Assembly: GCA_030390025.1 (NCBI GenBank)
Contig: CM059432.1
Coordinates: forward strand, 19,098,001 to 19,162,000
Direction: 5' to 3'
DNA from: Squalus acanthias
Lineage: Eukaryota
DNA length: 64,000 nucleotides
Position 1 is the first letter of the stretch. Each line of letters begins with the position of its first letter. Below the pieces are notes generated by a model. The model was not told where the DNA came from and made no database searches. It worked only from the letters and a program-made list of their open reading frames with translations. Below, piece after piece: positions 30,914 to 59,703 of this stretch. A program made the position numbers and the translations under genes.

Positions 30914-31541
30914 GGGGTAAAAATTCAGTTGGTTGCGCCTCCCGTTAGCGCCTTAAGAAGGCGCTAATGGGGCGCTAAGCCGCTAACGCCTGGGCGCAGC
31001 GATGTTTGCGCTGCTCGAGAACTTAACTAGAGATTGTGCGGCGGCGCTAAAACTTACCGCTGCGACCACCTGCGCGCGCAGATTGTGACGTCATTCTGTG
31101 GTGCAACGCCCTTGGGGCGCCCCGGAGCGGAAATTGAGTGGCGCCCCCTGCCTTACCGCCTGGCGCTTCCAACGACCGGAAGACTGGAACGTTATCAATC
31201 GTTCTGGGGCTGGGGGGGGCGCTATTTAAAGGGGGCCTCTTCCTGTCTTTTTCTGTGGTCGACATTTTTGCACCACTCGTTCTGAGAGAGAGAGAGAGAT
31301 TCGGAGAGAGAGAAAGAGAGACTTCTGCTTTGAGTCAACGCTTTGTGAGGTAGTTTTGCCTACTGATCCTAACTTCGCTGGTACTTTGGTTGCTGTCCTT
31401 CATAACTTTGCTTGCAAAGAGACTATGGGGGCTGCACTGATTGGGGGCGTCGTCCTGCTCCAGCTGAATCGGAGGACACAGAGACGCAGAGAGAGAGTGG
31501 CAATGATGGCCCCAAACAGGGCGCGACCTAATTTTTCCCCC
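30914..31541. mobile_element. Deletion derivative of the adjacent Harbinger, inverted orientation
   Basis: 30914-31510 is the reverse complement of ~34468-35066 and 31509-31541 is the reverse complement of 31553-31585. TSD tat/tat. Confidence 0.88.
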
Positions 31542-31916
31542 TATGACTCTATGGGGGAAAAATTAGGTCGCGCCCCGTTTGGGGCGCAAATATCGTCTGG
31601 ACGCAAATATTAGCGCCTGGCGCTAATTATCGCCACTGACTGGAAACTTCACTTTTACCGCCCCGGGAGGTGAGTGGAGCGCTAAATCAGGCGCTGCACA
31701 CCTGTCTTAAGGCGCAAAGGTCGAGCAGTGAGGCGCCAACTCAGCGCGCGAGCGCAGCGCAGCGCAGCTGCTGCCAGTTAGCGAGGGAACACAGACACAC
31801 TGGCGCCGGCCAGTTCTTAAAGCGGGGGGGGCCAACTTGCTCCCCAGCCACACCCTGCTCATTGCAGCCTTGAATCTCGGCCTGGAGAGACCTGTGAATC
31901 CATTTTGCTGCCAAGG

Positions 31917-33084
31917 ATGGAGAGGGTGAGAGAACGAGCTCATCGCTTCACCGAGCGGGCCTTGGATGCTCTGGTTGGCGCGGTGGAGCGCAGAAGATGT
32001 ATACTCTTCCCTGAGAGTGGCAGGAGGCCTTTGCCACGCGAGTACAGAAGAGTGTGGAGGGAGGTGGCTCAGAGCGTCTCCTCCAGGAGCATGGTGCCCA
32101 GGACCCATGTTCAATGCCACAAAAAGTTCAACGACCTCACTCGGGTCGTCAGGGTGAGTGGCTTTTTCTCAATACCTCTCCATCCCTCCATCTCAACCTC
32201 ACTCTATGGCCAGAGGGTCTTAAAACCACAATGCACAACACTCATCCAACACCTATGGCCCTTTCATGAAAGAAACACACACATTCCACACTTTGCATAC
32301 AGTAAGGGCTATTCACCTATGGGAGGCACATCAGGCAAGACCATGGCTGTATATTTACTCAGATGCTGTCCTTTTTCTTGCAGGCCAAGCTGGCGCATAA
32401 TCGGAGACAGCAGCAATGGACAGGTGGAGGGCGGCCTCAGCTGCAACCCCTCAGCGATCTTGAGGAGCGCGTCCACAGGATTGTGGCAAGCCGGGTGATC
32501 GGTCCCGTCGCCACTGGAGATGCCGACCCCGTTCTGGACAGCAATGGTAAGGTCATCACCTTTTTGTCCTCTGTCCTTCCACTTGTCCCTCACAACACCA
32601 GCCTTTGACACTTTCAATCCAACTTGCTAACTCGCTGCACTTATTCCTCCCTTACTGCCACCCTGTCCTCACGCTAAAGCCACTCTTGTACCTCCCTGCT
32701 TTCAGATGGTGATTCACTGCTCCGGATGCTGAAGTGCTGCCCCGTGGGAGTGCCAGTGTGTCGGGCGAGCAGGGAGTTGCTGTCCTCTCTCACGATGACA
32801 GCATTCCTGCTGCCAACACTGTCACTTCTCCACTGCACTTGCCACCGCCTGTAGGACAGACTGCTGCCGCCCATGCAGAGTTGGTGCAGTCTGCAGCCGG
32901 GCCCTCCAGGCCCAGAACTGGTCGAGGCCGTCCTTCAGGGGCATCTGCAGTGTCAGGGTCTGACGATCAGCAGCCTTCCACCAGCCTTGCTGCAGCCACT
33001 GAGGTCCCATTACGGAGGAGCAGTAGGGTTAGAAGGGGGGAAGTGCGCAAGGGAAGGAGATCACCCTCGAAGGGCAAAAAGTAG
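31917..33084 (+). pseudogene. Harbinger Myb/SANT-like DNA-binding protein (3 exons, last exon out of frame)
   Basis: Exon 1 31917-32153 (RFTERALDALV..W..VA..RT..QC.KKFNDL, then gtgagt). Exon 2 32384-32546 (ttgcag/gtaag; TGGG). Exon 3 starts at 32706. Confidence 0.8.
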
Positions 33085-33395
33085 GAGGTGTGACAAAATG
33101 CTGGTCATTTTTTTATTAAAGGCCGAGGTTTGTGGTCCAACTTTTGTTTAGTGTTTTGGACATTATCTCCAGGTTGTGAGAACCAGTTATGTTATTGACT
33201 GTTTTTTTGTGTTTATTTCTATGAGTTTGTCATGAGGAAATGACACACACAGAGTTTGTAAAATAAATACATTTTGTATTCAAAATATACATGTTTGGTG
33301 TTTGGAATCATTGGTGCCTTGGCCGGCTTAGGGGTTGCGTGCTGGGTTCATTGATGTTGTTAGCAATGGCAGAAGCCATTTCCACAGCAGGGGCC

Positions 33396-34553
33396 CTAGA
33401 AGCGGCTTGCTATCAGCCGTTGACGGACGGCCCTTGCAGTTTCACCATTGTGGGCCGCCCTCCCGCCTTGGTGCTGCTGATGATCATCCTCCTCATCCTC
33501 TTCCTCCTCTTCCTCCTCCTCCTCTGGTGATGCTCCAAGGCCTGGTGGCATTGGCTGGGTCCTGACGATTGCCATGTTATGCAACATGCAGCACACAACT
33601 ACGAAGTTGGATACTCGCTCAGGCGAGTACTGCAGGGCTCCTCCAGAATGGTCGAGACAGCGGAACCGTTGCTTCAGCACGCCGATTGTGCGCTCAATGA
33701 TGTTCCTGGTAGCTTGATGGCTCTCATTGTACCGCAGCTCAGCAGGGGTGTTGGGCGTACGGAAGGTGTCATCAGCCAGGTGCTCAATGGATACCCCTTG
33801 TCCCCGAGACGCCAACCAACTGACTTATGCGGTGCCTCGAAAAGTTCTGCCACAGTAGTCTGGCGCAGGATGAAAGCATCGTGGCAGCTGCCAGGATAGT
33901 GGGCATTGACAGCGAGTATCAGCTGTCTGTGGTCACAGACCAACTGAACATTCAAGGAATGGAACCCCTTTCTGTTCCGGAATTCCTCGGCATTCTCATG
34001 TGGAGCACGCAAAGCCACATGCGTGCAGTCAATGGCGCCCTGCACCATGGGGAAGCCCGCTATCCTCGCAAAGCCCAGAGCGCGGTCACGCTGCTTGTCT
34101 GGGGTCATGGGGAAGAGATGAACTCTCGTCTCCTTTTAAGAGGGCATTTGTGACCTGCCGGATGCAGCAATGCACCGCGAACTGGGAGATATTGGCGAGG
34201 TCCCCAGCAGCAGCTTGAAATGAGCCAGTAGCATAGAAGTTGAGAGCCACTGTGACCTTCACTGCCACCGACAGAGACGTCCTGGACCTCAGTTTAGGCT
34301 GCAGATCTGGCTGCAGCAGGTGGCAGAGCTCAGTGACCACCTCCTTGCTGAATCGCAGCCTTTGCAAACACAGCTCCTCAGACATATGAAGGTAGGAGAG
34401 CTGTTCACGATATACCCTGGGAGGGTAAGCTCTCCTGTACATACGCCTGTTGGCCCTCCTCCGTCTGGCCATCATTGCCACTCTCTCTCTGTGTCTCTGT
34501 GTCCTCCAAGTCAGCTGGAGCAGGACGACGCCCCCAATCAGTGCAGCCCCCAT
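33396..34553 (-). pseudogene. Harbinger DDE transposase (HARBI1-like), two frameshifts
   Basis: GAIDCTHV, RNRKGFHSLNVQLVCD, PGSCHDAFIL, GDKGYP and RNIIERTIGVLKQRFRCL spread over three frames. Confidence 0.92.
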
Positions 34554-35076
34554 AGTCTCTTTGCAAGCAAAGTTATGAAGGATAGCAACCAAAGTACCAG
34601 CGAAGTTAGGATCAGTAGGCAAAACTATCTCACAAAGCGTTGACTCAATGCAGAAGTCTCTCTTTCTCTCTCTCCGAATCTCTCTCTCTCTCTCAGAACG
34701 AGTGGTGCAAAAATGTCAACCACAGAAAAAGACAGGAAGAGGCCCCCTTTAAATAGCGCCCCCCCCCCAGCCCCACAGCGATTGATAGCGTTCCAGTCTT
34801 CCGGTCGTTGGATGCGCCAGGCGGTAAGGCAGGGGGCGCCACTCAATTTCCGCTCCGGGGCGCCACAAGGGCGTTGCACCATGGAATGACGTCACAATCT
34901 GCTCGCGCAGGTGGTCGCAGCGGTAAAGTTTAGCGCCGCCGCACAATGTCTAGGTAAGTTCCCGAGCGGCGCAAACATCGCTGCGCCCGGGCGTTAGCGG
35001 CTTTGCGCCCCATTAGCGCCCTCTTAAGGCGCTAACGGGAGGCGCAACCAACTGAATTTTTACCCCTGTGACTCTA

Positions 35077-37770
35077 TAAGTGGCTGCAGAGATAGTGGAT
35101 ACATTGGTTGTAATCTACCAAAATTCCCTGGATTCTGGAGAGGTCCCAGTGGATTGGAAAACTGCAAATGTAACTCCCCTATTCGAGAAAGGAAGAAGAC
35201 AGAAAGCAGGAAACTATAGGTCAGTTAGCCTGACATCTGTCCTGAGAAAATGCTGGAATACATTATTAAGGAAGTAATAACAGAACATTTAGAAAATCAT
35301 AATACAATCAAGCAGCGTCAACATGGTTTTAAGAAAGGGAAATTGTGTTTGACAAATTTACGAGAGTTCTTTGAGGATGTAATGAGCAGGGTGGATAAAG
35401 GGGAACCAGTAGATGTAGTGTATTTGGAATTTCAGAAGGCATTCAATAAGGTGCCACATAAAAGGTCACGGAACAAGATAAGAGCTCACGGGGTTGGGGG
35501 TAATATATTAGCATGGATAGAGGATTGGCTAACTACAGAAAACAGAGAGTTGGGATAAATGGGTCATTTTCAGGTTGGCAAACTGTAACTGGTGGGGTGC
35601 CACAGGGATCAGTGCTGGGGCCTCAACTATTTACAATCTATTTAATGACTTGGATGAAGGGGCTGAGTGTACTGTAGCCAAATTTGCTGATGATACAAAG
35701 ATAGGTGGGAAAGCAAATTGTGAGGAGGACACAAAGAGTCTGCAAAGGGATATAGATAGGTTAAATTGAAAGGATATTTACTAGTCCTAGCCCCTTTAGG
35801 GCTACCCCGGATCAGGCGTATTTCTCAGACGTTCACTTTCAACTAAAGTTTGAGGTAGCCGAATCCTAAAGACACTTAATTTGGTCTAAAGGTCTGGGTT
35901 ATCTCTTCCTAAAGGAAAGGAATGACCCGAGAATGTTACCATCCTCCAGATAGCGCTTTTAATAAGTTTAGCTAGACTGTAACATCCTGGATATTATGAG
36001 GGTCCGGTAAACTCCCTCAGAATTCTGCAACTCCTCACCAAAGAGTGTACAGAGATTGAGTTCGCGAGTTTTTGATACAGAAGTCTTATGTGAGACAATT
36101 CTAAAAATATATAGATTTATTAAAGAACTGACATGCAATCTACAGTTGGTGAATCAGTCAATCGCAACTTTAACAGTTCTAAAAAGAGAAAACATACTAT
36201 CTTTTTAACAGAGAATCTTACTTTTAAATCTTAACTTCGCTACAGTATTACACTTCTTAAAGTTCTCTATACAGGATAGCCATCAATATTAAATACCTTT
36301 GATTCCCGAGGTACAAAGAGTGGTGGACTACAGAGCCGCCTCTGAAGCTGAGAATTGCTTTGCCTGATTAAAGCGAGTCTGATATTCCATTTGAGAGTTC
36401 AATATTTATACCCTTTTCCAGTGGTATCTGCTTTAAGATTTTCTGCTGATGCAAGTTAATTATACCTAGTCATTTTTCTGCCAACCTCTACAATTCGTAC
36501 TGCCACATCAGCTGGTAGCATTACAGAATCTTGTCTCATCTCTGGGTGCTCTAGGGTCACCATATAAAAACGGTGTGATGGCAGGTGTTCCTTACTTTAT
36601 GTCATCTTTACAAGGGCAGATGTTCCTTATCTTATGTGCCATCTTTACGAAGTTTAAATTAGAACACCTTATCCAGGGTGAAGCATTGTTTTGTTCCCAA
36701 AAGGTCAGCTTGTTGGAGCCATGCACCTTCTGTTTCAATAAGGTTATTTATTCAGGGTCAACAAGTGTCTTATCTCAATACCCAGAATGCTTTCATAGCT
36801 ATTTCATAATTAGGTTTCTAAATTTCCAAACCCAGTTTGTCATGTTTTAATAAGGCCAGAATTCTTTCATAAGATAGTGTATTTTTCTGAATAGGTTATA
36901 TGGCTTATTCCTTCACAAAATGAGTGGGCAAAAATTTGGCAGATGGAGTATAATGTGGGAAAATGTGAGGTTATCCACTTTGGTAGGAAGAATAAAAAGC
37001 AAATTATTATTTAAATGGAGAGCGACTACAAAATGCTGTAGTACAGAGGAATCTGGGGGTCCTCGTGCATGAAACACAAAAAGTTAGCATGCAGGTACAG
37101 CAAGTAATTAGGAAGGCAAATGGAATGTTGGCCTTTATTGCAAGGGAGATGGAGTATAAAAATAGGGAAGTCTTGCTACAACTGTACAGGGCATTGGTGA
37201 GACCACATCTGGAATACTGTGTGCAGTTTTGGTCTCCTTATTTAAGGAGGGATATACTTACATTGGAGGCAGTTCAGAGAAGGTTCACGAGGTTGATTCC
37301 TGAGATGAAGGGGTTGTCTTATGAAGAAAGGTTGAGCAGGTTGGGCCTATACTCATTGGAATTTAGAAGAATGAGCGGTGATTGTATTGAAACATATAAG
37401 ATTCTGAGGGGGCTTGACAGGGTAGATGCAGGGAGGATGTTTCCCCTTGTGGGGGAATCTAGAACTAGGGGGCATAGTTTCAGAATAAGGGGTCGCCCAT
37501 TTAAAACGGAGATGAGGAGGAATTTCTTCTCTCTGAAGGACATGAATCTTTGGAATTCTCTACCCCTGAGAGCTGTGGAGGCGGAGTCATTGAATATATT
37601 CAAGGGGGAGATAGACATATATTTGAGCTACAGGGGAGTCGATGGGTTATGGGGAGCGGGCAGGAAAGTGGAGTTGAGGCCAAGATCAGATCAGCTATGA
37701 TTATATTGAATGGCGGAGCAGGCTTGAGGGGCCGAATGGCCTACTCCTGCTCCTATTTCTTATGTTCTTA
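35077..37770 (+). mobile_element. CR1 LINE RT, split by a solo LTR
   Basis: ORFs 35080, 35250, 35575 and 37065. DIDRLN at 35766 resumes as EWAK at 36922. Confidence 0.9.
35767..36917 (-). mobile_element. Solo LTR (1151 bp)
   Basis: TG...CA ends (tgaaagga / tccttcaca), TSD aaat, minus-strand TATA near 36408 and AATAAA near 36119. Confidence 0.8.
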
Positions 37771-38298: not shown

Positions 38299-38795
38299 TA
38301 AATTACTGAAGTAATGGAATGTTGTGTTAAGTAAACCCAGAGATAGTAGGAGGCATGGAATTCGGTAATGTTATGGAAAAGAGATAAGAGTTGGAGACAG
38401 CCTTCATTCAAGAAGCTGCAGAATAGACAAACTGTTTAGAAAACACCTCAAGGATGTTCTGTGAAGCTCACAGCAGAAAAGGGGAGGGAATCATAGACCG
38501 TACTTGTGAAGGTCAGAATGGTGAGATAGCCCAAGCAGCTGCAAGTTGCTATGTATTTTGAAGAAAATAAAAGGTATAAAAGAACAGCTATTGAACACTG
38601 GAAGCAGCACGAAACCAGAGGATGAGAAGCTTCAGTCAATGAACAGACTGTGACTATCTTCTTGTTATGTATCACTTCTTTGTACTGGATGTTTAATGCT
38701 TAATAAACCTGTTTTACTGATACACAATATACCTGTACCCAGAGTGGTTTGTGTAGTCATGGACAAATTATTATAAAGAGCTTTTAAAAGCTACA
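38299..38795 (+). repeat. ERV 5' LTR (5'-truncated, ~64-bp internal deletion)
   Basis: Direct repeat of 49442-50002, roughly 95% identical by eye. TATAAA near 38575, AATAAA near 38702, ends in gctaca. Confidence 0.93.
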
Positions 38796-38797
38796 AT

Positions 38798-38814
38798 TGG
38801 CGCCCAACGTGGGG
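38798..38814 (+). promoter_or_regulatory. Primer binding site, tRNA-Lys1,2 (CUU)
   Basis: TGGCGCCCAACGTGGGG starts 2 nt after the LTR-terminal CA. Confidence 0.92.
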
Positions 38815-39295
38815 AACAAGACATTCAGCAACATTGCAAAAGAAGATAGGGGGCTGGAGTCAGTCACCACTCCCTGTCTTCTCAAAAATGCAGAACCGGC
38901 TAAACAATGAGCTGATTACAAAGCAAAAAGACATCTGTGAGAATTTAGTGTGAAGGTTGTTCTCAGATAAGGATAGCTTGCTTACTAACTGCCACGTAGG
39001 CAAAAGGGAGAAAAAAGGTTCAAACCAAGTTAGAGAACAATCAGGATAAATTAGAAAAAGACAAGCTACGGCTGATAGAAGGGAATGTAACGTTAACGGG
39101 GGTAACAGAAACGTTAACGGGCGAGAAGTCAAAATGGGAAAAAGAGGCTGTAGAGTTAAATAGTAAGAATGAAGTTCGTCAGGGCCGGGTCGGTGCTGCG
39201 ACAGCAATAATGCAGCAACAGAGTATTAATGCAGTTCACGCCAGCGCTGCAATGCAGAACCTTGAGGAGGCTCGGTGTCAGGTAGCCTCCTTAAC

Positions 39296-39392
39296 CTTGT
39301 GATTTCAAATAAAGCTGTTGGAGTATAACCTGGTGTTGTGCGACTTCTCACTTTTGTCCACCCCAGTCCAACACCGGCATCTCCGCATCATT
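39296..39392 (+). mobile_element. Short Penelope pLTR fragment inserted in gag
   Basis: Matches 27680-27740 and 55346-55403; flanked by a cttaac duplication. Confidence 0.8.
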
Positions 39393-40237
39393 CTTAACAA
39401 AGGACAATGACCGTCTTACCAGACAATTAAATGATTCAGCGCCCCCAAATGGAGTCGGACCACAGGCAGTGTCATATTACTATACAACAGTTGGAAAACC
39501 AGCTGGGTAAACAACGGGCTGTAATAGCGGCAGTCACGGGAGTCGACCCCCCCGCGAGTTATGATAAAGAATGTGAGGAGTTAAGTGGAGAACTATATCC
39601 TCCCTTGCTACCCCCTTCCCAAAAGGCCCCCGTCTCTTATGCCACCATCGACCTGGCTAAGAGACCCCCAGCCTATGCTGATAACAATAGCGTAAAAACC
39701 TCAGTGGATGAGCCTCACCTGTTGAAGCCCCAGTTAATGTTCTGACCCGTACCCAAGTGATTCCTAACGCGCCACCAGCTGCTGACGGTGACCAGGCACA
39801 AGCAGCAGCACAACCAGCGGCAGCTCACCCGGGAATGCTGTGGGCGGGTACTTATGAACGATCCCAGCCCCTGAACTATGCAGAACTACAGGCATGTGTC
39901 CAGCAATTCGGACCAGTTAACCCACGAACATGCCCCATAGAGCTAAGGCAACGTACGGTGGGGTTCTGGAATTACCATCCTAATTTTGAGGACAGTGACA
40001 TGAAAAATGTTATACTGTCTGCCTTGACTCTGGACCTACGGACCAGTCTCCCATTCATGGCCTTTAATGTGGGGAACCCCCCTGAATAACTATACAAACA
40101 GCTCTGGGCTTGGACACTATTGATCTGGTTCAGAAATTAAACCAGTCTCAACAAGGGCCTCATGAGACCCCTGCTGCATTCGGGGATCGGTTGTACACTG
40201 TTTATGAGATGATGCAGGCACTCCCCAATGATAATGT

Positions 40238-41750
40238 TGTAAGGTTTCCAAAATTTGCAGATCCCCAAAAACCTAAGGAAAAAGGACTTTGGAACTACCT
40301 CAGAGTGATAAAAATGCATTTGGGCCAAACCTAAGGATTTTAAGACCAAAAAACAAGTTTTGGCATTTTAAAACTATGTCTGGGCCTGTAAAGGGACAAG
40401 GAGGTGGGTTCGACCTCTGTAAAAGCAGTTTGGCTATTGCAGTTAATTACACTGTCTGGGGAACCGGGATGACCTCACTCAAGCCCCAGCAGACATTAAC
40501 ATTTGAACAATAGACCCAGGGAGAAGACAGTCCCACCCAAAATACAGGCCCCATCAAAACCGATTACAGGGCCCATCAGAAACATGCATAATTAAAACCC
40601 ACTCAGGACCATTCTATAGAAAGACCGAGTCCAGCCTAGAAAACTAAACACAAAATCAATCAACTGTAATCAACCAAGGAGACCGACAGGATGCAAACCA
40701 TCCCAAAAGCCATTTGACACTTACAGAGCAGTTACTGGTAACAAGCCCGTCAAAACCAGACAATGAACTGAGTAGATTTGGCGGGCAGATAAGGCCACTT
40801 CAATTCAGTATAATTGAAGGTCCGTTAAGCAGTTCAAGGTCAGTGGCCATCAGAAGAAGAAGAAACAAGAAAGAAGACAAGCCGAGCTGGAAGCGAGTCG
40901 GCATCGCTCACCACTCAGACACACCTGAGTCCAGCTCGTGAAGATACCACCTCGACGGACCTCCAACAACGGTCCCAACACAGTCACCCGGAGCAACAAG
41001 CAGCAACAAGTCACCGACGGCTCCACGAGGTCGACCGACACACTAGACAAGGCCTAAAACCATCGCGGAAACCAAAGGCCTCAAGTAACCAACAACCGCA
41101 TATTACCCACAACTGACCGGGTAATAGCGGGCCACCGCGACCAACAAAGACCAACTCAAGGGAAGAACCCGAAGAACCGCAAAGTTTCCACTCTACAATC
41201 TACTCCTGACTTACCCCTGGGTAAGATTTTCCCAAAGACTCTAAGCACTACTGCTAAACCAAAGAAATTGGGTACTCACCAGATAGATCCAAAACGACAT
41301 CCTACCACATCAGCGGACTCGCGAAGACTGACCAGAGACTCAGGTGAAGTCCTCTACCGCATACGGGGTACGGCAGACACTAACCGCCATAAACAGTGAA
41401 CCCCAAAACCGCGATTTAGCCCAACTGTCAAAGGATTGGTGAGCATTATCCCTGGTCCTTCAAAGCCTAACTTAGCTAGTAAAGTGGGGTTGGGAGGGGT
41501 GAAGTATTGTTCTACTATCATTTCCCTCGCTTGTACCGAAGTGTTCCCCACCTTTAGAGTGTTAACAGTGTCATTATTTGTGTTTTACCTTTTTAATAAA
41601 GATTGAAGTTCTTTCATCAAACTCAGTTGTCTGCTGCACCTTTTGTCACAAGCCCCCAAATAAGTCCAAGGCCTAGAACCAAGGGAGTGGTAGCGATTCG
41701 AACCGCTCAGAAGTCTGAGGTGAAGCTGACACAAACCACCACCCCCTACA
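40238..41750 (+). mobile_element. Solo LTR (1513 bp) inserted in gag
   Basis: tgtaagg...cctaca ends, TSD atgt, AATAAA near 41596. Removing it restores ..ALPNDNVVNGKNEAAFKK.. Confidence 0.88.
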
Positions 41751-42283
41751 ATGTCGTAAACGGGAAGAATGAGGCAGCATTTAAGAAAATATACTTAAAG
41801 AATATTCAGGCCTCACTGTGAGCAGCCTTAGGGCACACTGTCAGCCACAACTCACAATGGACAGACCTTTTAAGAGATGCTAACGCTGCATGGGCCTACG
41901 CTAAAACTCAGGTTCAGTTACCAACAGCAGAAACACCAGCAGTTGAGGGACCCCAGGCCTCCCCAGCGTCACCGCCCCATAAGCAGCCCTTGATATGTTA
42001 GAACTGCGGAAAGGTGGGACACTTTGCAAAAGATTGCTGAGGTCCTAGACAGACAGGCTCTGGAGGTGGGAGGAAAAATAGTAATTACTCGCAATATGGT
42101 CCATCCCGTTCACCCAATCCAATGGAGAGTAAAATAGACGTCCTAGGCTCGTGTATGGAGAGCATGTCATGTATTATGCAAACTCTTGCATTGACCCAGA
42201 TGTCGGGGTACCCCGTGACTCCAACTATGAGCTCGTCATTCCTGCCCCCACCATTGCCCCAACAACCCAACGGCTCACAATGA

Positions 42284-45200
42284 CGGGGTCCGGCCCCACC
42301 AGCCTGGTCTGAAGTGGGGTTCAGACGAGACAGCCATGGTCGACCGGTGGTCCCAGCTTTGCTGCCTGGGGAGCCGACAGCAGACTATGCTAATAGACAC
42401 CGATTCATCTGTTTCAATCCTGCATACGCCAGACCCTGAACGCCAGCTTGAAATAGGCAAAAGTAGCTTCGTAATAACAGGAATCACCGGCGCACAGGCA
42501 CCAGCGTACTCGGGAGAGGAAGTTAGTATTGTTCTGGGTAAACTCCCCGTAAAAATCACCGATCCGTTATATATGTGTATGACAAACGAAATGGGAATAC
42601 TTGGCAATGACACCCTACGGGGAATGACAGCCATTATAGATTACAATCAGAACTGTTTGTGGGTTGAGTCTAAACCGGGAGATGTAGTGCAAATCTCAGA
42701 CGCCCACTCGGTGTTTGCTATAAAGAAGCCTGAGCAGATAGCACTGCCGACACATTCCCTGTCTGCTGTTAACTCCTAAACTGACTAAACACGCAGCAGC
42801 CTTTGCTAAGTCTAAACACAACTGTGGGGGAATGGAAGGGGAAACGCGAATTAATGGTCCACCCCATCGCGTATGTAAACAACACCCAATTCCCTGGTAA
42901 AGTATTCTGTATTTACGAACAGTCATTGCCTCATTAGAAGAACAGGGAGCACTGCGCAAAGGTTTGTTTACCACCAATTCCCCCGCATGGCCAGTTTGGA
43001 AGCCAGATGAATCCTGGAGGCTTACTATTGATTACCGAGCCCTAAACAAAGCTTCCCCACATCAGAGTCCGACTGTTAGTCAAGCCCCTTCGCCATTGAC
43101 ATCTGTAGCCCCCAAAGCTACTGTCTTCTCTACCCTAGACATAGTGAATGGATTTTGGAGTATCCCAGTTGCTCAGGAGGACCAGTACAAATTTGCTTTC
43201 ACGTTTGAGGGGCAGGGCTACACGTTTTCGTGTTTACAGCAAGGGTTTCATAACTCACCATCAATCTTTCATCAATATATGGCACGCACAGTTAAAGACT
43301 TTTCTAAACCATCAGCCCTTCTACAGTATGTTGACGACCTGCTCCTGGCTACCGAAACAATGGAGGAACACCTAAAACTTCTAGATGAGTTGATAGGGTT
43401 AGTACAGAAGGCAGGGCTGAAAATAAATCCAAAAAAGGTTCAGCTGGCAAAAGATGAGGTTATCTTTCTGGAAGTAAAGATTTCAGCGACCTCAGTCCGG
43501 ACCACCAAAAGGTAGAGACTATTCAACGACTCCCATTGCCAGTTTCGAAGACCGCACTGCGATCCTTGTTAGGCTTGGTTGGATATCAGCGAAATTTTAT
43601 TCCGAACTTTGCGGACTTGGCAAAACCTTTGTATGATCTTTTAAAGGGCGATGCGGAAGAGATACAATCCGTATGGGAAGACCACCATACTGCTGCAGTT
43701 AGTGCTTTGAAACAAGCCACGATGCAGGCTACTGCTCTCATTTCCCCGGATCACAGCCAGCCCTTCCATCTTGAAGTAGGTTCCACCCCTACCAGCCTAA
43801 CTGCCATTTTAAGTCAGACCCAAGCAATCAGCGAGACACTAAGCCCCATTGCGTACGCCTCACGTATTTTACGAGTGGTAGAAAGCACATTCTCAGCGTG
43901 TGAGTGCCACCTGTTGGCCACATTTTGGGCAGTCAATCATTTTACTTATATCACCGGACTGCAGAAAGTGACTTTGCATTCACCACACACGCCCCTTAAT
44001 CTGCTGGTAAAACCAAGTGAGACTAAGGTGTCCTCTCAGCGAATCAGTAAATGGACACTTGAATTGTTACAGCGAGACCTGGACATTACTCCTAAACAAA
44101 CTACACCGTTACCTTTTATGCTTGCCTATGAGGGAAGCCCACACCAGTGCCCATTACCAATACTAAATATGGAACCAAACCCAGTAAAGGCCAATGCCAT
44201 ACCTGGAGCTCGAAATGTGTATGTAGACGGATCATCATACTATGTAGACGGCCATCCTGGAACTGGATGTGCCCTCATTGATATGGACGCTCTCGATTGG
44301 TCAGTGGGATTCCAGGTTCCCGCCCACTCCTCCCAACAAGCAGAACTAATTGCTGTAATTCTCGCCACTCACTACACAACTACGGATGAAACTAATAGCT
44401 GGTCCAACAGCAGCTACGTCTGTAATGCAGTTATGGCCCTTCCCCTATATTGTACACATGAGTTTTGCTCATCAGATGGTAAATCTTTATTACATTCTGG
44501 TCTCCTTCGTAAGCTATGGAAAGTGCTCCAGGAGCAAGTCGCTCCCTGTCATGTCGGAAAGGTAGCAGCCCATCAGAAAGATTCATCTCCCCACTCCTGA
44601 GGAAGCTGCCGAGAACGGCTGTCTATTGCCTTGGTAGGTGACGAATGACACTCAGACGCCCGTAGTGGGGGCGGTAACTAAAACCAAAACCATTGATCGT
44701 TTGGCCCTACAGGATTCACACGCTCCCTATGCGCAAGTAATAGCCTGGCATGAACAGGGACGCCCACTACCAGCACCCACCCCATGGGCAAACGCAACTA
44801 TAGTACAACATGTGGCGGATAAAAACCCTCCCCTGCTAATGGTTAAAAACAAAGAGGGAGACTTAGTAGTTTGTATTCCTCCTCAGTTGAAGGAAGAAAT
44901 TCTAGCCCTCTTCCATTCCCACCCGATGGCGGGACATTACTCAGCGGCCACTACACTACAAACATTATTATCTGTTTGCTGATGGCCTGAAATGGAGCAG
45001 CATGTGGAACAACCTGTTAATCGCTGCCTGCCATGCCTACAAACAAACCCTCCTTCATGTTCTAATCGTGCCTTGTTTAGGTCACAGCCCCCTCCCGAGG
45101 GACCATGGACTCACCTACAGATTGACTTTATTGGCCCGCTAACAAAATCCAAGGGTAACTACGAGTACGCACTCGTGGTAATTGATCAGTTCACTAAATG

Positions 45201-45970
45201 GATAGAGGCGTTTCCCACAAGAAACAATAAAGCGCGCAATGCTGCCCGAATTCTCCGGAGTGAGGTGTTCTGTAGGTAGGGATTACCGCTACAAGTGGAT
45301 AGTGATCAGGGTCCACACTTCACGGGGGCAGTTTTCACAACCCTACAAGAAATGTTACAGCACATTGCGCACCATCCACAATCATCAGGGATTGTGGAGA
45401 GGGGGAATTGAACTCTAAAAACAATGCTGCAGAAGCTGTGTACAGAACACCCCACTCAGTGGACTAACATGTTGCCCTTATGTTTAATGGCAATACGTTC
45501 CACCCCACACGGGACTACGAGGCTAAGTCCATATGAGGCTATGACTGGGAGACAAATGCGGATACCAGGACATGTAACATTGGGGAATAACACATCATTA
45601 AAGTTACAACCCTGTAGTCAAAAATGGTTACAAACCTTGATAGATCATATGGACGAGGTGAACAGGCTGGTGGCCATTAACACAGGCAAATCGCGTGAAC
45701 AAATCAAGCGATATTATGATAAGAGGGTAAAACCACTTGAGTATGCGGTTGGGGACCGGGTAATGTTACAAAATTTCTCTCCAAAAAAACACTCATTCGA
45801 GGTAAAATGGAGGGGCCCTCATACCACAGTAGATAAATTAAATCCAGCTGTGTATCTACTGAATGTGCCAGATGGTCCGAAGGGAGAACCTAAACTAAAA
45901 TGGTTCCATATCAATCAGATGAAAACTGTTAAGAATCAAGATGTTACATTTTGGTCTACCCACAGGTTAA
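42284..45970 (+). pseudogene. pol: ERV pol: protease, RT, degenerate RNase H tether, RNase H, integrase
   Basis: PR: LIDTDSS and GILGND. RT: WRLTIDYRALN, LDIVNGFW, QGFHNSP, QYVDD. RNase H: VYVDGSS, QQAELIA. IN: HSHPMAGH/CLPC, LQIDFIGP, SDQGPHF, GIVER, WRGPH. Confidence 0.92.
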
Positions 45971-45972
45971 AG

Positions 45973-48900
45973 ATGTGGCTCTGTATACTGATATTGATGA
46001 CTGGATGTGCAGTGAGCTCTACGGAGGTAACAAAAACTTTTGACATTACCATTAACATCTGTACACCGGATCAAGGAGGCGAATGCGCCCCACTCCCCAT
46101 CTATGGAACGGAACCTTAAATTGTTTGCGGACATAAACAATCAAAGAACCATAGTGGTTCATCTGAGACATATGGGGGGAGTATTCCGGTTTGGATCAGA
46201 AACAGTACAAAAGATAATGTAACAACAACATATGTGACGGGTTGTGGTACATTACAAGAAAAGGTGTATAGTTGGGAAATAAAAGAAGGATATAGTGTGT
46301 GTATCAGGTGCGGGATAAGGGACAGCAAAGGCCCAAATGTGTGGCAATTCCTGAAGAAAAATAATAGAATCTGGGAACAGGTACAAGAATCAAACCAGGG
46401 CCTAGTAGCTTCAGAGAGCAAGGAATACATACAATTATGCTGGCCTCGGTGGTGGAAGAAACACACCGGCCAGTATTCTTGTATTGGGTCAAATATTATC
46501 TCGACCCTAAAAATCAGGGTGATGATTGGCCTTCTATCCCCGAAGATAATATGAAGATTACTTCAGCAGGGAATGAACCCTTTATGACAACCTTTAAATG
46601 TTGGGGAAATTATAGGGACCCCGAGAATGAAGATAGCAGCATAGTAGAATTCAAAAATGCAACAACTGGGTGTCTAAGGGAGGATGGGTATTTCTATAGC
46701 ATTAGGCTCACACCCTATGAGAAAACAAACCATTCAGAACCCCAAGAGGGAGTACTCGAGAAACAATGCCCCCACTTAAAACCGGGACCTAGGAATGGTC
46801 TTGTAATTATCCCTACCTATAAAGCAGTGCATCATCAAGTAATAGCAGAAGTGGCCCCTGTTATCCTCAATTTAACAGACCTAATACTACCAAAGTGGTG
46901 CCCTGACAAAACCGCGCAATTAACTCAAAGAATGCTGCAGCACATTGTTAGCAAATACTGGGAAAAGGCGACTTTGTCGACGAGCATAGAGAAAACAGAA
47001 GAGGCCTTCCGCCACGAGCTTAGTACCACTCAAGAGGAAAGCCAGGGAAAGAGTAGGCGGAGAAGAGAATTGATAAATGATGGGCTCACAGGTTTCAACA
47101 CAGTAACCTCAATAGTTAACTCAATGGACTCTGCAGATTTACAGAGACAAATACAAATGGTAAGGGAGAAATTGAAGGAGATACTCAGTAAGGAAAACAG
47201 CATAGAAAGCGAGGAGCTAAGGGAGGATTAGGTAATGACCATACACCTGCGGGATATCATACACGAGATAGAGGATCACGCCAAAAGAATTAATGATCTG
47301 ATTAGAGAAAACAGAAATGCCTCTGATCAAGCAGCCCATAATGACGTACGCATTATGTACAGGAATTGGCTGATTGAGCAAACTAGGGAAAACCTTCAGA
47401 CCATCAACAAGGGACGTCTCCCCACTTGGGTCACTAATAAACACTTATCAGGGCTATCCAGTTATTACGATGATACAGAACTATGTAAGATCAGAAGTTT
47501 GATTAGGATCCACCCCGTCAAACACGAATGCCATGAGGTAGGGAGTCAAAGGTTGATGGGACTAATACTACAAATTCCTAGTCTAATGAATCGAACCAGG
47601 CCCAACCCCCTATTTCGAATAGAGAATATAGGAGTAGTAAAGGGAAATACTATTAACCGATTTCTCACGGCACCACAATGGTTAGTACAGTTAGAAAAAC
47701 TAACATGGATTGAACCAAACCTACAAGGATGTAATACAAATGAGGATGCCCTTGTTTGCCCATACAGTTTGTACGATCATTCAAAGGACACCTGTGGGTA
47801 TGGTTGGAATGAAGGAAGGTTAAACTGTACTATGGAAGTGACAGGCCCCTCAGATGTAAGAACTAGGACAGCCTACATATGAGAAGGGAGGTATTGTTTT
47901 ACCACTTTAGAAAACTCTTTTAATCACGGAACACTTGAATGTTCAATAACCCCAGGGACCTACTGTATCACACCCACAAAGACTACGGTAATAGGAGGAA
48001 GGATTCTCCTTGCAATAGCCTCACATTACAAGTAGAAGATGATTTAAATATAAATCTAGAAGATTATGTCACTAAATTCGGATATGATAGCCCTGAGCTA
48101 CCTGAAGCCTTAACCGAATTAATAAATCAAGTGAGCACCTCCCAATGCCATTATTATACACTGGTGCAAAGGAATAAAGCCATAGCCAAGGAAATTCCAG
48201 ATATCGAAGATCAAACACACTGGTGGGACATAGGGACAAACATGGAAATTCCTCCTTGGATTAGGATAATTTCCCATGTACTGGTCATACCCAACTCGTA
48301 GTACTGATATGCTTACTATTCCACACCTGCTACCTGAAACACCTAGGGCTGGATTTTGAATGACCCATGGAGTCGGGTTTGGAGGCGTGTGGGGGGTTAA
48401 ATTTGCGGGGTCGGGGTTTCCGACCCCATCCCGACTCCATCCCGCCTGCACGCAATTTTAACAAAATCAGTCACGGGGTTCCCGACTCCGTCCCGCCTCC
48501 AAGAGGCGGGAGAGGCCATTACAGCCCTTAACAAGCCCTAAATTGGGTCTGTAATGCTATTTTGAATCGTTGTAGCTAGTTTAACCCATTTCTGACGTGA
48601 AGTACGCCTGGTGTGAAACACTCCAGTGAAACCTGGCGGGAGCACAAGTGGATAGCTGACTATGAGCTGCAGGTCCACTATTACAACGGAGATGTGATGA
48701 AGGTCGTAGTAGTATTAGGTCTTAAAGTCGCCTCTGATGCTGCTGCATTGAATGTCTTCAGAGACTGCCTGGCCTTTGCTGCGAGAGGACTTGGATGGAA
48801 AAAAATTCATTCTCTCTCTCTCTCTCTCTCTCATATATATCAATTTTCTATCCAGGTCCAATCACATCAAAAGCCAGGCAGGTCCTCTCTGACCAGCAGC

Positions 48901-49218
48901 CAGACAATCTCTGAGAGCAGGCAGTCAGCAATGATGACATCATCACAGGCGGGTTTCAGGCTGAAACCACTAATTGGTTCATGGGTTCCCACATGCTGGA
49001 ACTCAATTGCCCAATTAAGTTAAAATTGCATCATTCATCCACATTAATCTGGAGTCGGGGGGGAAACACGAAATGTGGAGGACATGACCTCAACCCGACC
49101 CCAAGACAAAATCCAGCCCCTAATGTACGAAACCCGATCCCATTTAAATATGATCACAACCCAGAATATCTTAGAGTTACATAAACGTGGGAGAACAAAC
49201 CCGTATGTAAGATTTTAG
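45973..49218 (+). pseudogene. env: ERV env: signal peptide, Ig-like domain, F-like class I fusion protein, TM and tail
   Basis: Signal MWLCILILMTGCAVSS, furin site RRRR at 47055-47066, heptad region, Cys-rich region, TM ~48265-48335. The tail ends YVRF* once the MITE is removed. Confidence 0.82.
48346..49119. mobile_element. Harbinger-type MITE inserted in the env tail
   Basis: TIR gggctggatttt/aaaatccagccc, TSD cta, same family as 58823-59703. Confidence 0.88.
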
Positions 49219-49248
49219 TTTTGAAGGGTCGGCAAAATGCCTCACCCT

Positions 49249-49261
49249 CAAGGTAGGGATC
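49249..49261 (+). promoter_or_regulatory. Polypurine tract
   Basis: aaggtagggatc immediately precedes the TG of the 3' LTR. Confidence 0.6.
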
Positions 49262-50002
49262 TGTAGGATAGAGTGTACCTGTAGGATTTAGTAAACATTA
49301 TTAAGATTCTATAATCATTTTTATATAACTATAATATGTGAAATTGTATGTTAAAAACCTAAAAAGCCTGTATAAAATGGCGAATGGCTGAGACCAAAGC
49401 AGGATGGGAAATTATGCCAACCTGACTTAAAACCTCTGTTATAAATTACTGAAGTAATGGAATGTTGTGTTAAGTAAACCCAGAGATAGTAGGAGGCATG
49501 AAATTCGGTAATGTTATGGAAAAGAGATAGGAGTTGGAGACAGCCTTCATTCAAGAAACTGCAGAATAGACAAACTGTTTAGAAAACACCTCAAGGATGT
49601 TCTGTGAAGCTCACAGCAGAAAAGGGGAGGGAATCATAGACCGTACTTGTGAAGGTCAGAATGGTGAGATAGCCCAAGCAGCTGCAAGTTGCTATGTATT
49701 TTGAAGGGAAAAAAAGGTATAAAGGAACAACTATTGAACACTGGAAGCAGCACGAAACTAGAGGATGAGAAGCTTCAGTCAACAGAACACAGCAAGAGCA
49801 TAAAGAGACCGCGCCGCAGTCACTCGGAAGGAACGCCGGGATTCAATAAACAGACTGCGACTATCTTCTTGTTAAGTATTATTTCTTTGTACTGGATGTT
49901 TAATGCTTAATAAACCTGTTTTACTGATACACAATATACCTGGACCCAGAGTGCTTTGTGTAGTTACGGACAAATGATTATAAGGAGCTTTTAAAAGCTA
50001 CA
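49262..50002 (+). repeat. ERV 3' LTR (741 bp)
   Basis: Inverted termini tgtag...ctaca; direct repeat of the 5' LTR. Confidence 0.92.
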
Positions 50003-58210: not shown

Positions 58211-58822
58211 CTTCCTGGGCATGTCAGAGGAGACTGGTCTTCAGAGTCTCCATAAAAGAAGCTATACCTTCTCCTGGAGGCTGACCTACAGCCAACTTGT
58301 ACCAGACAGCTCACCTTGTGGGTGTGAAGGTCACTTCTACATTAAACATCTACACCAAGATCCATCTCTTTGATCAAGCTTTTAGTCATCCCTCCTAATC
58401 TTTCACTTCCTAGATTGATGTCTGTTTTCACAATGGCTATTAAGTAACCACTTTGGGATGTTTCTTTATGTTAAATATGTAATGATAATGCAAGTTGTTG
58501 TTGCCTTCTCCTGCTTATGTGCTCACTTGCTACAAGTATTGTACAGATTGTTGAGACTGCTCATCGCATCTTGACAGGCATGGTGTATTGTGCATTCCAA
58601 GGAGGGCACTCTGAGTTCCAAGCAGTGCCTCATACCCATCTCAAACAGAGGCCGGTTGCTGCTCCATCACAGCCATACATTTTATGCCTTCAAATTGGGT
58701 TTCTTTTCCTAGCAATTGTCCTCTCCACCAGGCTATCCTTGGCAAACTTTGACAAATAGTTTAAAACCACTTTGGGCCTTTATAAAAGCTAAACAATATT
58801 TTCCTTCATATGCAGACACTTA

Positions 58823-59703
58823 GGGCTGGATTTTCAATGACCCGTGGAGTCGGGTTTGGAGGCGTGTGGGGGGTTAAAGTTGCAGATTCGTGGGTCCCGA
58901 CCCCATCCTGACTCCATTCCGCCTCCACGCAATTTTGACAAAATCGGTCGCAGGGTTCCCAACTCCTTCCCGCCTCCAAGAGGCGGGAGAGGTCATTAAA
59001 GCCCTTAAGAAGCCCTAAATTGGCTTTGTAATGCCATTTTGAAATGTTTTAGCTAGTTTAACCCTTTTCCGACGTGAAGCATGCCTGATGTGAAACACGC
59101 CAGTGAAACCTGGCGGGAGCACAAGTGGATAGCTGACTATCAGCTGCAGGTCCACTATTACAACGGAGATGTGATGAAGGTAGTAGTAGTATTGTGATGA
59201 AGGTAGTAGTATCAGGTCTGAAAGTCGCCTCTGATACTGCTGCATTGAATGTCTTCAGAGACTGCCTGGGAGGACTTGTCTCTCTCTCTCTCTCTCTCTC
59301 TGAGATGCTGCTCATTTTGCATCCAGGTCCTCTCACAGCAAAGGCCAGGCAATCTCTGTGTACTGTGGGGATTAAAGCAGGGACAGGGTACTGGACTTGG
59401 ATGATCAGCCATGATCGTATTGAATGGTGGAGCAGGCTCGACGGGCCGAATGGCCTACTCCTGCTCCTAGATTCTATGTTTCTATCTCTGAGACCAGGCA
59501 GTCTCTGACCTGCAATGACGACATCATCAGAGGCGACTTTCAGACTGAAACCACTAATTGGTTCATGGGTTCCCACATGCTGGAACTCAATTGCCCAACT
59601 AAGTGAAAATTGCATCAATCTCCCACATCCAATCGCAGGCGGGTGGATAACACAAAATGCGGATGACATGACCCCTTCCCGCCCCAGTATCAAAATCCAG
59701 CCC
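58823..59703. mobile_element. Harbinger-type MITE containing a CR1 tail fragment (~59362-59487)
   Basis: TIR gggctggatttt/aaaatccagccc; high similarity to 48346-49119. Confidence 0.85.

Follow-up and report, generated by a model that had tools for sequence, protein, structure and literature searches.

To which branch of the retroviruses does the provirus at positions 38299..50002 of a 64-kb stretch of shark DNA belong? The stretch, hereafter the window, comprises the whole 64,000 nucleotides analysed (Squalus acanthias, GenBank assembly GCA_030390025.1, contig CM059432.1, positions 19,098,001 to 19,162,000 of the forward strand), and positions below are counted from its first letter. The original prediction, made from the letters alone, took the element for a near-complete lokiretrovirus-like provirus in a probable cartilaginous fish. 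The host is indeed a cartilaginous fish, the genome being that of a shark, and the parts of the provirus lie where they had been placed, as alignment of the long terminal repeats (LTRs), host tRNA genes and Pfam matches confirmed. The lokiretroviral identity did not survive the analyses described below. We consider it very likely that the element is a dead canonical retrovirus of an early-branching class III group whose members also occur in frogs and the coelacanth, with an envelope protein (Env) that is homologous to lokiretroviral Env and is predicted to be of the paramyxovirus F type. The provirus itself is ordinary, class III endogenous retroviruses (ERVs) being the commonest kind in cartilaginous fishes; what stands out, and carries the interest, is the envelope link together with separate lokiretrovirus-type fossils elsewhere in the genome.

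The provirus and the placement of its polymerase

The element is a real provirus with the order LTR, primer-binding site (PBS) for tRNA-Lys, gag with a CCHC motif, protease, reverse transcriptase (RT), tether, RNase H, integrase (IN), env and LTR; this copy is dead and encodes no intact gene. Its parts are listed here with their Pfam matches, which come from a scan run over 15 stop-free segments. SnRV is snakehead retrovirus.

38299..38795, + strand: 5′ LTR; the first 180 nt are missing, and against the 3′ LTR there is a 64-nt internal gap
38798..38815, + strand: PBS for tRNA-Lys(CTT), complementary to the 3′ end of host tRNA-Lys(CTT) genes
39000..42283, + strand: gag, disrupted by two inserts as well as by stops and frameshifts
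42281..42283, + strand: gag stop codon, after which pol-like sequence continues in frame, a layout as in SnRV
42387..42758, + strand: protease region, degenerate (RVP, 0.004)
42802..43485, + strand: RT polymerase domain with YVDD, of canonical-retrovirus type (RVT_1, 3e-31)
43497..44585, + strand: tether (degenerate RNase H) and second RNase H (RT_RNaseH_2, 9e-20; RNase_H, 2e-8)
44659..45924, + strand: integrase with HHCC, core and GPY/F-like C-terminus, and three in-frame stops (rve, 2e-5; Integrase_H2C2)
45973..49220, + strand: env, broken and split by the third insert, with a signal-peptide-like start near 45973
49262..50002, + strand: 3′ LTR, complete, 741 nt, with ends TGTAG...CTACA

Between the LTRs, 497 aligned columns show 20 substitutions (Kimura two-parameter distance 0.042), in addition to 64 gap columns. 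All five other copies examined match the start position of the 3′ LTR, and the 180 nt missing from the 5′ LTR occur nowhere else in the window; because the start of the 5′ LTR is lost, the target-site duplication of the provirus is not readable. The host genome gave 203 pattern matches for tRNA-Lys(CTT) genes, and both of the two checked were upheld by ARAGORN. Gag has a coiled-coil-like N-terminal part and a capsid-like middle; here the predicted CCHC knuckle was found, once, at 41996-42037 with a stop inside the motif, while the accompanying call of a major-homology-region-like motif proved weak (Pfam Gag_p30, E=0.02). Pol is split across four frame segments, and Pfam places both RNase H domains, the tether and the RNase H proper, in a single frame. 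No accessory open reading frame (ORF) was seen in the window between env and the 3′ LTR, nor was an smc gene as in lokiretroviruses seen.

Frog and coelacanth Pol proteins annotated as ‘NYNRIN-like’ (P0005 of Xenopus tropicalis, P0003 and P0006-P0008) are nearest in every domain, with identities of 52-56% in RT, up to 55% in tether/RNase H and up to 51% in IN; they differ in host class, and the frog members share the window's env type. The window RT is 47% identical to that of SnRV (178 bits), 33-38% to foamy viruses, 35% to lokiretroviruses and 29% to gypsy elements. In the published lokiretrovirus RT alignment (Wang & Han, Dataset S3, PMC7947760), one motif reads P-F-G in 24 of 24 lokiretrovirus rows and P-Q-G in all 15 canonical rows seen. 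The window RT has the x-Q-G form at that motif and lacks the lokiretroviral signature motifs.

For the RT and IN trees that the original prediction had proposed, lokiretroviruses were represented by three metagenome contigs (L044-L046) bearing the lokiretroviral RT signature, the two that reach env having a lokiretrovirus-type Env. We added teleost, lamprey and frog lokiretroviral Pol sequences (120 listed of 162 homologue matches, with no named chondrichthyan among those 120) and gypsy outgroups, for which a search gave nothing at E≤1e-60 and a looser cut-off was used. Foamy, gamma, epsilon and class II reference genomes were also used, and L013 was taken as SnRV, since its RT agrees letter for letter with SnRV in the published alignment. 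The trees omit foamy, gamma, beta and delta genomes that were near-duplicates, the short fragments P0015, P0017, P0035, L026 and L051 and most copies from the shark's own genome; in addition, the trees of RT+tether and RNase H and the second IN tree contain no class II viruses.

RT+tether placed the window inside the canonical retroviruses and with neither foamy viruses nor Gypsy. In the RT tree the window falls on the non-lokiretroviral side (support 96/95), and in the RT+tether tree the lokiretrovirus branch is sister to everything else (99/95). With nine lokiretrovirus and five gypsy rows, RT+tether recovered lokiretroviruses at 99/99 and canonical retroviruses at 100/99, and joined the window in one clade with Xenopus, other frogs and the coelacanth at 98/96. 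That clade branches near the base of the canonical retroviruses in the RT+tether trees, and within it the window family forms a shark-specific subclade (100/100 in both RT and RT+tether trees). Approximately unbiased (AU) tests on RT+tether rejected a union with lokiretroviruses (p=0.003 with 6 rows and 0.009 with 13 rows). The second RNase H likewise lies outside the group of lokiretroviruses and foamy viruses (93/85, from 160 columns only), which is group I of Wang & Han. SnRV Gag has a CCHC knuckle, whereas 0 of 16 long lokiretroviral frames, some of which may not include Gag, contain one. Because of the RT+tether trees, the AU tests, the side on which RNase H falls, the absent RT signature and the gag CCHC, the predicted lokiretroviral assignment is rejected.

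That the element is a true lokiretrovirus after all is therefore barely credible. Its dual RNase H, its F-type env nearest to lokiretroviruses and its lokiretrovirus-side integrase speak for such an identity, as does the RT-only AU test for the wider clade (p=0.07); the dual RNase H is common to all retroviruses and so is not diagnostic. Besides the evidence just given, including an RT identity of only 35%, the window has no long protease-RT insert as in the lokiretroviral Pol compared.

Foamy viruses prime on Lys-type tRNA, and a foamy-like ERV of cartilaginous fish would share with them the tRNA-Lys(CTT) PBS and an Env with an F-type core; the best PDB sequence match of the window RT is also a foamy Pol (2e-34). 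The PBS is mixed within the family: among five other LTR copies with a PBS (L128-L132), three are of the Lys type and two of a different type, presumably tRNA-Arg, and therefore we dropped the PBS as a diagnostic. A union with mammalian foamy viruses was rejected (AU p=0.011; fish foamy-like ERVs stood outside the comparison), the tether/RNase H match to foamy viruses is among the weakest, the env profile described below matches foamy Env at about 2%, and the window has a gag zinc knuckle and a gag stop in frame with pol, all of which make this origin highly unlikely.

In all trees the window falls apart from classes I and II and from foamy viruses, and its RT+tether, together with the arrangement LTR-gag-pol-env-LTR with a PBS, places it in Retroviridae sensu stricto by the canonical criterion. 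We regard the element as a canonical retrovirus most likely of class III grade (‘clade Huo’). SnRV, a member of that assemblage (PMC4422223, PMC6001957, PMC12193657), is the closest named virus by RT and shares with the window one similar CCHC knuckle, a gag stop in frame with pol and an Env that aligns over about 290 columns; it differs in not being resolved as sister, in its distant IN (96 bits) and in its PBS, and the window env is nearer to lokiretroviruses. ‘SnRV-like’ is thus a loose label for the element. The accessible texts of earlier surveys make such a virus in a shark unsurprising: clade Huo has hosts in every vertebrate lineage (PMC6001957, PMC8922424), SnRV-related ERVs have been published for the elephant shark Callorhinchus, a chimaera (PMC4422223), and clade III makes up 2843 of 4861 ERV RT loci in six chondrichthyan genomes (PMC11089739).

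Two further assignments were set aside. Ty3/Gypsy elements, which have a single RNase H, and Odin elements, which have no env, do not fit the dual RNase H, the presence of env and the tree position inside the retroviruses (the trees held no Odin row). ERV4, which by the criteria given in the accessible part of Chong 2014 (PMC4299795) has neither a gag zinc finger nor GPY/F and makes a 5-bp target-site duplication, does not fit the zinc knuckle and GPY/F-like integrase motif found here; the same source allows SnRV/Ovex1-related ERVs to have both traits.

An envelope related to that of lokiretroviruses

The window env, whose main frame has two stops, was read with X at each of them and gave 34 relatives, or 35 sequences with the window included. 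Eight of the 10 relatives looked up were named, seven of them from sharks and a skate and one from a frog. In the predicted protein a basic cleavage site lies at about 47058-47069, and the membrane-proximal part at about 47939-48345. Its N-terminal part, 46120-46551, gave a weak immunoglobulin match (Pfam Ig_3, E=0.0024) and is possibly a receptor-binding module. A shark relative is annotated ‘Ig-like domain-containing’.

A profile built from 25 of the relatives and searched against 282 ORFs of reference genomes ranked lokiretroviral Env first, with two hits at 2e-17 and 4e-17. The next best hits, at best 2e-6, were foamy and lay in short hydrophobic stretches, followed by walleye dermal sarcoma virus (WDSV; 1.5e-4) and SnRV (0.004). 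Lokiretroviruses also came first in hhalign with the env profile, which scored them at 98%, SnRV at 94%, WDSV at 75% and foamy viruses at about 2%. The window env alone also placed lokiretroviruses first among seven reference Envs, at E of about 1e-5. We considered whether the profile could have been inflated by true lokiretroviral Envs among its members and ruled this out: none of the 35 sequences is a lokiretroviral Env, the best long match being 25% identical, and a profile of only the 11 closest relatives still ranked lokiretroviruses first (1e-6). In the reverse direction, lokiretroviral Env searched against the whole genome gave four weak hits, all in the window's env family, and hence no lokiretroviral env fossil was found in the shark's own genome. 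Together these results support homology between the window env and lokiretroviral Env.

Sequence searches with env alone against Pfam and PDB gave no F-protein match, and the env profile against PDB found only foamy gp130, at E=0.99; the link to F proteins therefore rested on a fold search. An AlphaFold2 model made from 25 sequences (predicted local distance difference test, pLDDT, 64.5; predicted template modelling score, pTM, 0.45) matched the F protein of human parainfluenza virus 3 best (E 1.9e-9), then those of respiratory syncytial virus, Newcastle disease virus and henipavirus, and foamy Env at 1.2e-5. It also matched diverse viral F-type glycoproteins, and the Envs of walleye epidermal hyperplasia virus and WDSV appeared in the viral fold search. 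The env is thus predicted to fold like paramyxovirus F, and the original prediction was borne out for the envelope: by fold search and profile ranking it is F-like and closer to that of lokiretroviruses than to any other reference env. For foamy viruses (Spumaretrovirinae), whose RT clade is separate and whose env profile match is negligible, the accessible part of a structural study likewise describes an Env with a paramyxovirus-F-like core (PMC11468914). Lokiretroviruses (PMC7947760, PMC9040795) share with the window not only the dual RNase H and a related integrase but an F-type Env with a basic cleavage site and detectable similarity, and differ in the RT, tether and RNase H, which in the window fall outside their clade.

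Frog gene models pair the same Pol type with the same env type (P0004 with P0029, P0003 with P0047), and the combination is therefore not peculiar to the window copy. Apparently full-length open env genes of the window's type are annotated as host proteins in Chiloscyllium punctatum (P0020, 739 aa) and Pelodytes ibericus (P0029, 723 aa). Over about 290-340 columns the F-type env profile also aligns with the Envs of SnRV (L013) and WDSV (L064); an envelope of this type may be widespread in the retroviruses of fish.

The layout suggests how the virus would have replicated. Reverse transcription would have been primed on tRNA-Lys(CTT), Gag-Pol was likely made by readthrough of the gag stop codon, as the SnRV layout suggests, and Env was likely translated from a spliced RNA using an acceptor-like site just before 45973. 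Cutting at the basic site would yield two subunits that carry out F-type (class Ib) membrane fusion, by analogy with foamy Env as described in the accessible part of PMC11468914.

The integrase and the origin of the shared envelope

Among named reference viruses, the nearest to the window IN is that of lokiretroviruses, which scored 229-236 bits against 96 for SnRV IN. The second IN tree has a 17-row clade that holds both the window and lokiretroviral IN; within it lokiretroviruses are monophyletic (100/100) and the window IN lies outside lokiretroviruses proper. CGIN1 itself was absent from the IN tree. An IN tree of RT-like topology was not rejected (AU p=0.25), and the integrase was accordingly discarded as proof of recombination.

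Several points weigh against our reading of the element as a canonical class III retrovirus with an F-type envelope. Foremost is the integrase, since a purely canonical origin does not predict that the window IN groups with lokiretroviral IN (97/97 split; 94/95 in the second tree). The RT-only AU tests of the wider clade with lokiretroviruses are weaker than those on RT+tether (p=0.04 and 0.07), and SnRV comes out as sister only in the RT tree, at 83/53, both RT+tether trees placing it elsewhere. Placement is further limited by the references, as no tree held ERV-L, ERV3/ERV4, Odin or fish foamy-like sequences. The env model is moderate at the scores given above, with a TM of about 0.3, and the readthrough, splicing and cleavage steps are read from sequence only.

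How, then, did a retrovirus with a canonical RT come by an envelope like that of lokiretroviruses? Recombination of IN and env is possible. A single crossover after RNase H could have given the ancestor of a canonical class III retrovirus the IN-env half of a lokiretrovirus, or its env alone. In keeping with such an event, IN and env are adjacent and both nearest to lokiretroviruses, unlike RT, tether and RNase H, and lokiretrovirus-type fossils occur in the same shark genome. We nevertheless regard it as unlikely, given that the RT-like IN topology was not rejected, that lokiretroviruses are monophyletic in the IN tree with the window IN outside them, that env identity to lokiretroviruses is only about 18-25%, and that the Envs of SnRV and WDSV also match the profile weakly, as old shared ancestry would give.

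If IN and env were both retained from an ancestor, the data are explained and no recombination is needed. Most likely the shared envelope goes back to an F-type env that the ancestor common to canonical retroviruses and lokiretroviruses already had. More broadly, and with a confidence that falls somewhat short of an even chance, we propose that the element represents an unnamed early-branching canonical lineage of sharks, the coelacanth and frogs that kept the ancestral F-type env and the integrase shared with lokiretroviruses, env having been gained once before the split, and that the same genome holds the first lokiretrovirus fossils in cartilaginous fish. The accessible text of Wang & Han 2022 (PMC9040795) states that canonical and lokiretroviral Env ‘did not share detectable similarities’ and, partly for that reason, prefers independent gains. 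A lineage with canonical RT whose Env matches lokiretroviral Env in both directions of search and has an F-like predicted fold bears on whether envelopes were gained once or twice; if true, a single gain before the canonical/lokiretrovirus split contradicts the published preference for two. Added to the foamy Env structure already in print, this match makes the idea of a single F-type envelope of ancient origin testable by an env tree.

We found no report of this env link or of shark lokiretroviruses in the accessible parts of the literature, including PMC12287698, PMC12440569 and bioRxiv 2023.10.26.564294, a scope that excludes subscription journals, Repbase and bioRxiv supplements; the window family may thus have been described before. 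A survey of anamniote Env (bioRxiv 2021.11.23.469661) covers, in its accessible part, gamma-type Env.

Probable lokiretrovirus fossils, family history and surrounding repeats

The original prediction had also proposed that the element could extend the lokiretrovirus host range to chondrichthyans, on the basis of a host list that held lampreys, bony fishes, amphibians, reptiles and birds. According to the accessible part of the original survey (Wang & Han 2021, PMC7947760), lokiretroviruses were found in none of six chondrichthyan genomes, in agreement with that list, and in none of 146 birds, so that birds did not belong on it. Because the element is not a lokiretrovirus, the extension fails at the window locus; at other, degraded loci of the genome it seems to be valid.

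Genome-wide searches covered the 3.71 Gb shark assembly. Its single RAG2 matches a hexanchiform shark cluster at 93% identity, other sharks and rays at 82-85%, Callorhinchus at 75% and the coelacanth at 60%, which marks the host as a shark. A lokiretroviral RT query gave, among the 150 scored of 14,883 candidates, 149 matches of at most 42% identity and one of 53%. Four loci, that of the 53% match and three more, emerged as lokiretrovirus-type RT fossils.

L092:4440-5218, C7 at about 114.567 Mb: lokiretrovirus-type RT fossil with the lokiretroviral signature
L123:406-1121, C9 at about 93.87 Mb: lokiretrovirus-type RT fossil with the lokiretroviral signature
L125, C7 at about 55.09 Mb: lokiretrovirus-type RT fossil with the lokiretroviral signature
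L126, C22 at about 59.77 Mb: lokiretrovirus-type RT fossil with the lokiretroviral signature

All four are decayed RT pieces with the lokiretroviral RT signature, and their best matches are lokiretroviral Pol at 37-59%. Four pieces from the L092 and L123 loci group inside the lokiretrovirus clade (95/91 and 94/99), and weak sequence resembling lokiretroviral Gag lies upstream at L092 and L124. The loci sit in chromosome-scale contigs, surrounded by repeats that also occur in the window. The pieces are short and old, and no LTR or env was found at them. A search for the exact lokiretroviral motif pattern had given no match in the shark's own genome or in viral contigs, and the later protein search gave degraded copies that the pattern had missed; no lokiretroviral sequence was found in PDB or viral contigs. 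That the four loci of this shark are true fossils of lokiretroviruses we hold with high confidence. They are separate from the window provirus, and they fill the sole jawed-fish class left empty in the original survey, which bears on the age and spread of lokiretroviruses.

The window family itself is numerous. Candidates in the genome number 431 for RT and 1274 for the 3′ LTR. Identity to the window RT is 87-95% in the 39 other RT copies scored, and 40 of the LTR candidates were scored. Germ-line integration would have been followed by spread through reinfection or retrotransposition to hundreds of copies, and the window copy would then have decayed through stops, frameshifts, loss of the start of its 5′ LTR and three insertions. 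LTR divergence converts to about 10 Myr at a mammalian rate or, with the shark rate that Han 2015 assumes (PMC4422223), to about 95 Myr, and the age of the provirus is bracketed only by these values, from about 10 to about 95 Myr.

Further distinct class III-like ERV families occur in the same genome (L095, which is C3432, and L079, L084, L087 and L088), with RTs 47-65% identical to the window RT. One of these other families has two CCHC knuckles and several near-identical copies.

The boundaries predicted for the three inserts were exact, each insert having a target-site duplication.

39296..39392, no strand assigned: insert 1, a short repeat fragment with a 6-bp target-site duplication, CTTAAC
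40238..41750, + strand: insert 2, a 1513-nt solo LTR of another LTR element, TGTA...TACA, with a 4-bp target-site duplication, ATGT
48346..49119, no strand assigned: insert 3, a miniature DNA transposon (terminal inverted repeats; 3-bp target-site duplication, CTA)

Insert 1, which may be a Penelope-like 3′ end, also flanks other loci of the same shark genome. The solo LTR of insert 2 has 4448 candidate copies in the genome, 40 of them scored, and a second copy of the insert 3 transposon lies at about 58816-59703 in the window. CR1-type long interspersed nuclear element (LINE) 3′ ends and tails resembling short interspersed nuclear elements (SINEs) are dense in the window, for example at 36996-37700, and one such CR1-type LINE 3′ end or SINE-like tail lies directly upstream of the shortened 5′ LTR. 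Farther upstream, at 30914-35066, long inverted repeats that are 94-98% identical over about 600 nt surround about 3 kb, a unit that is probably a young DNA transposon.

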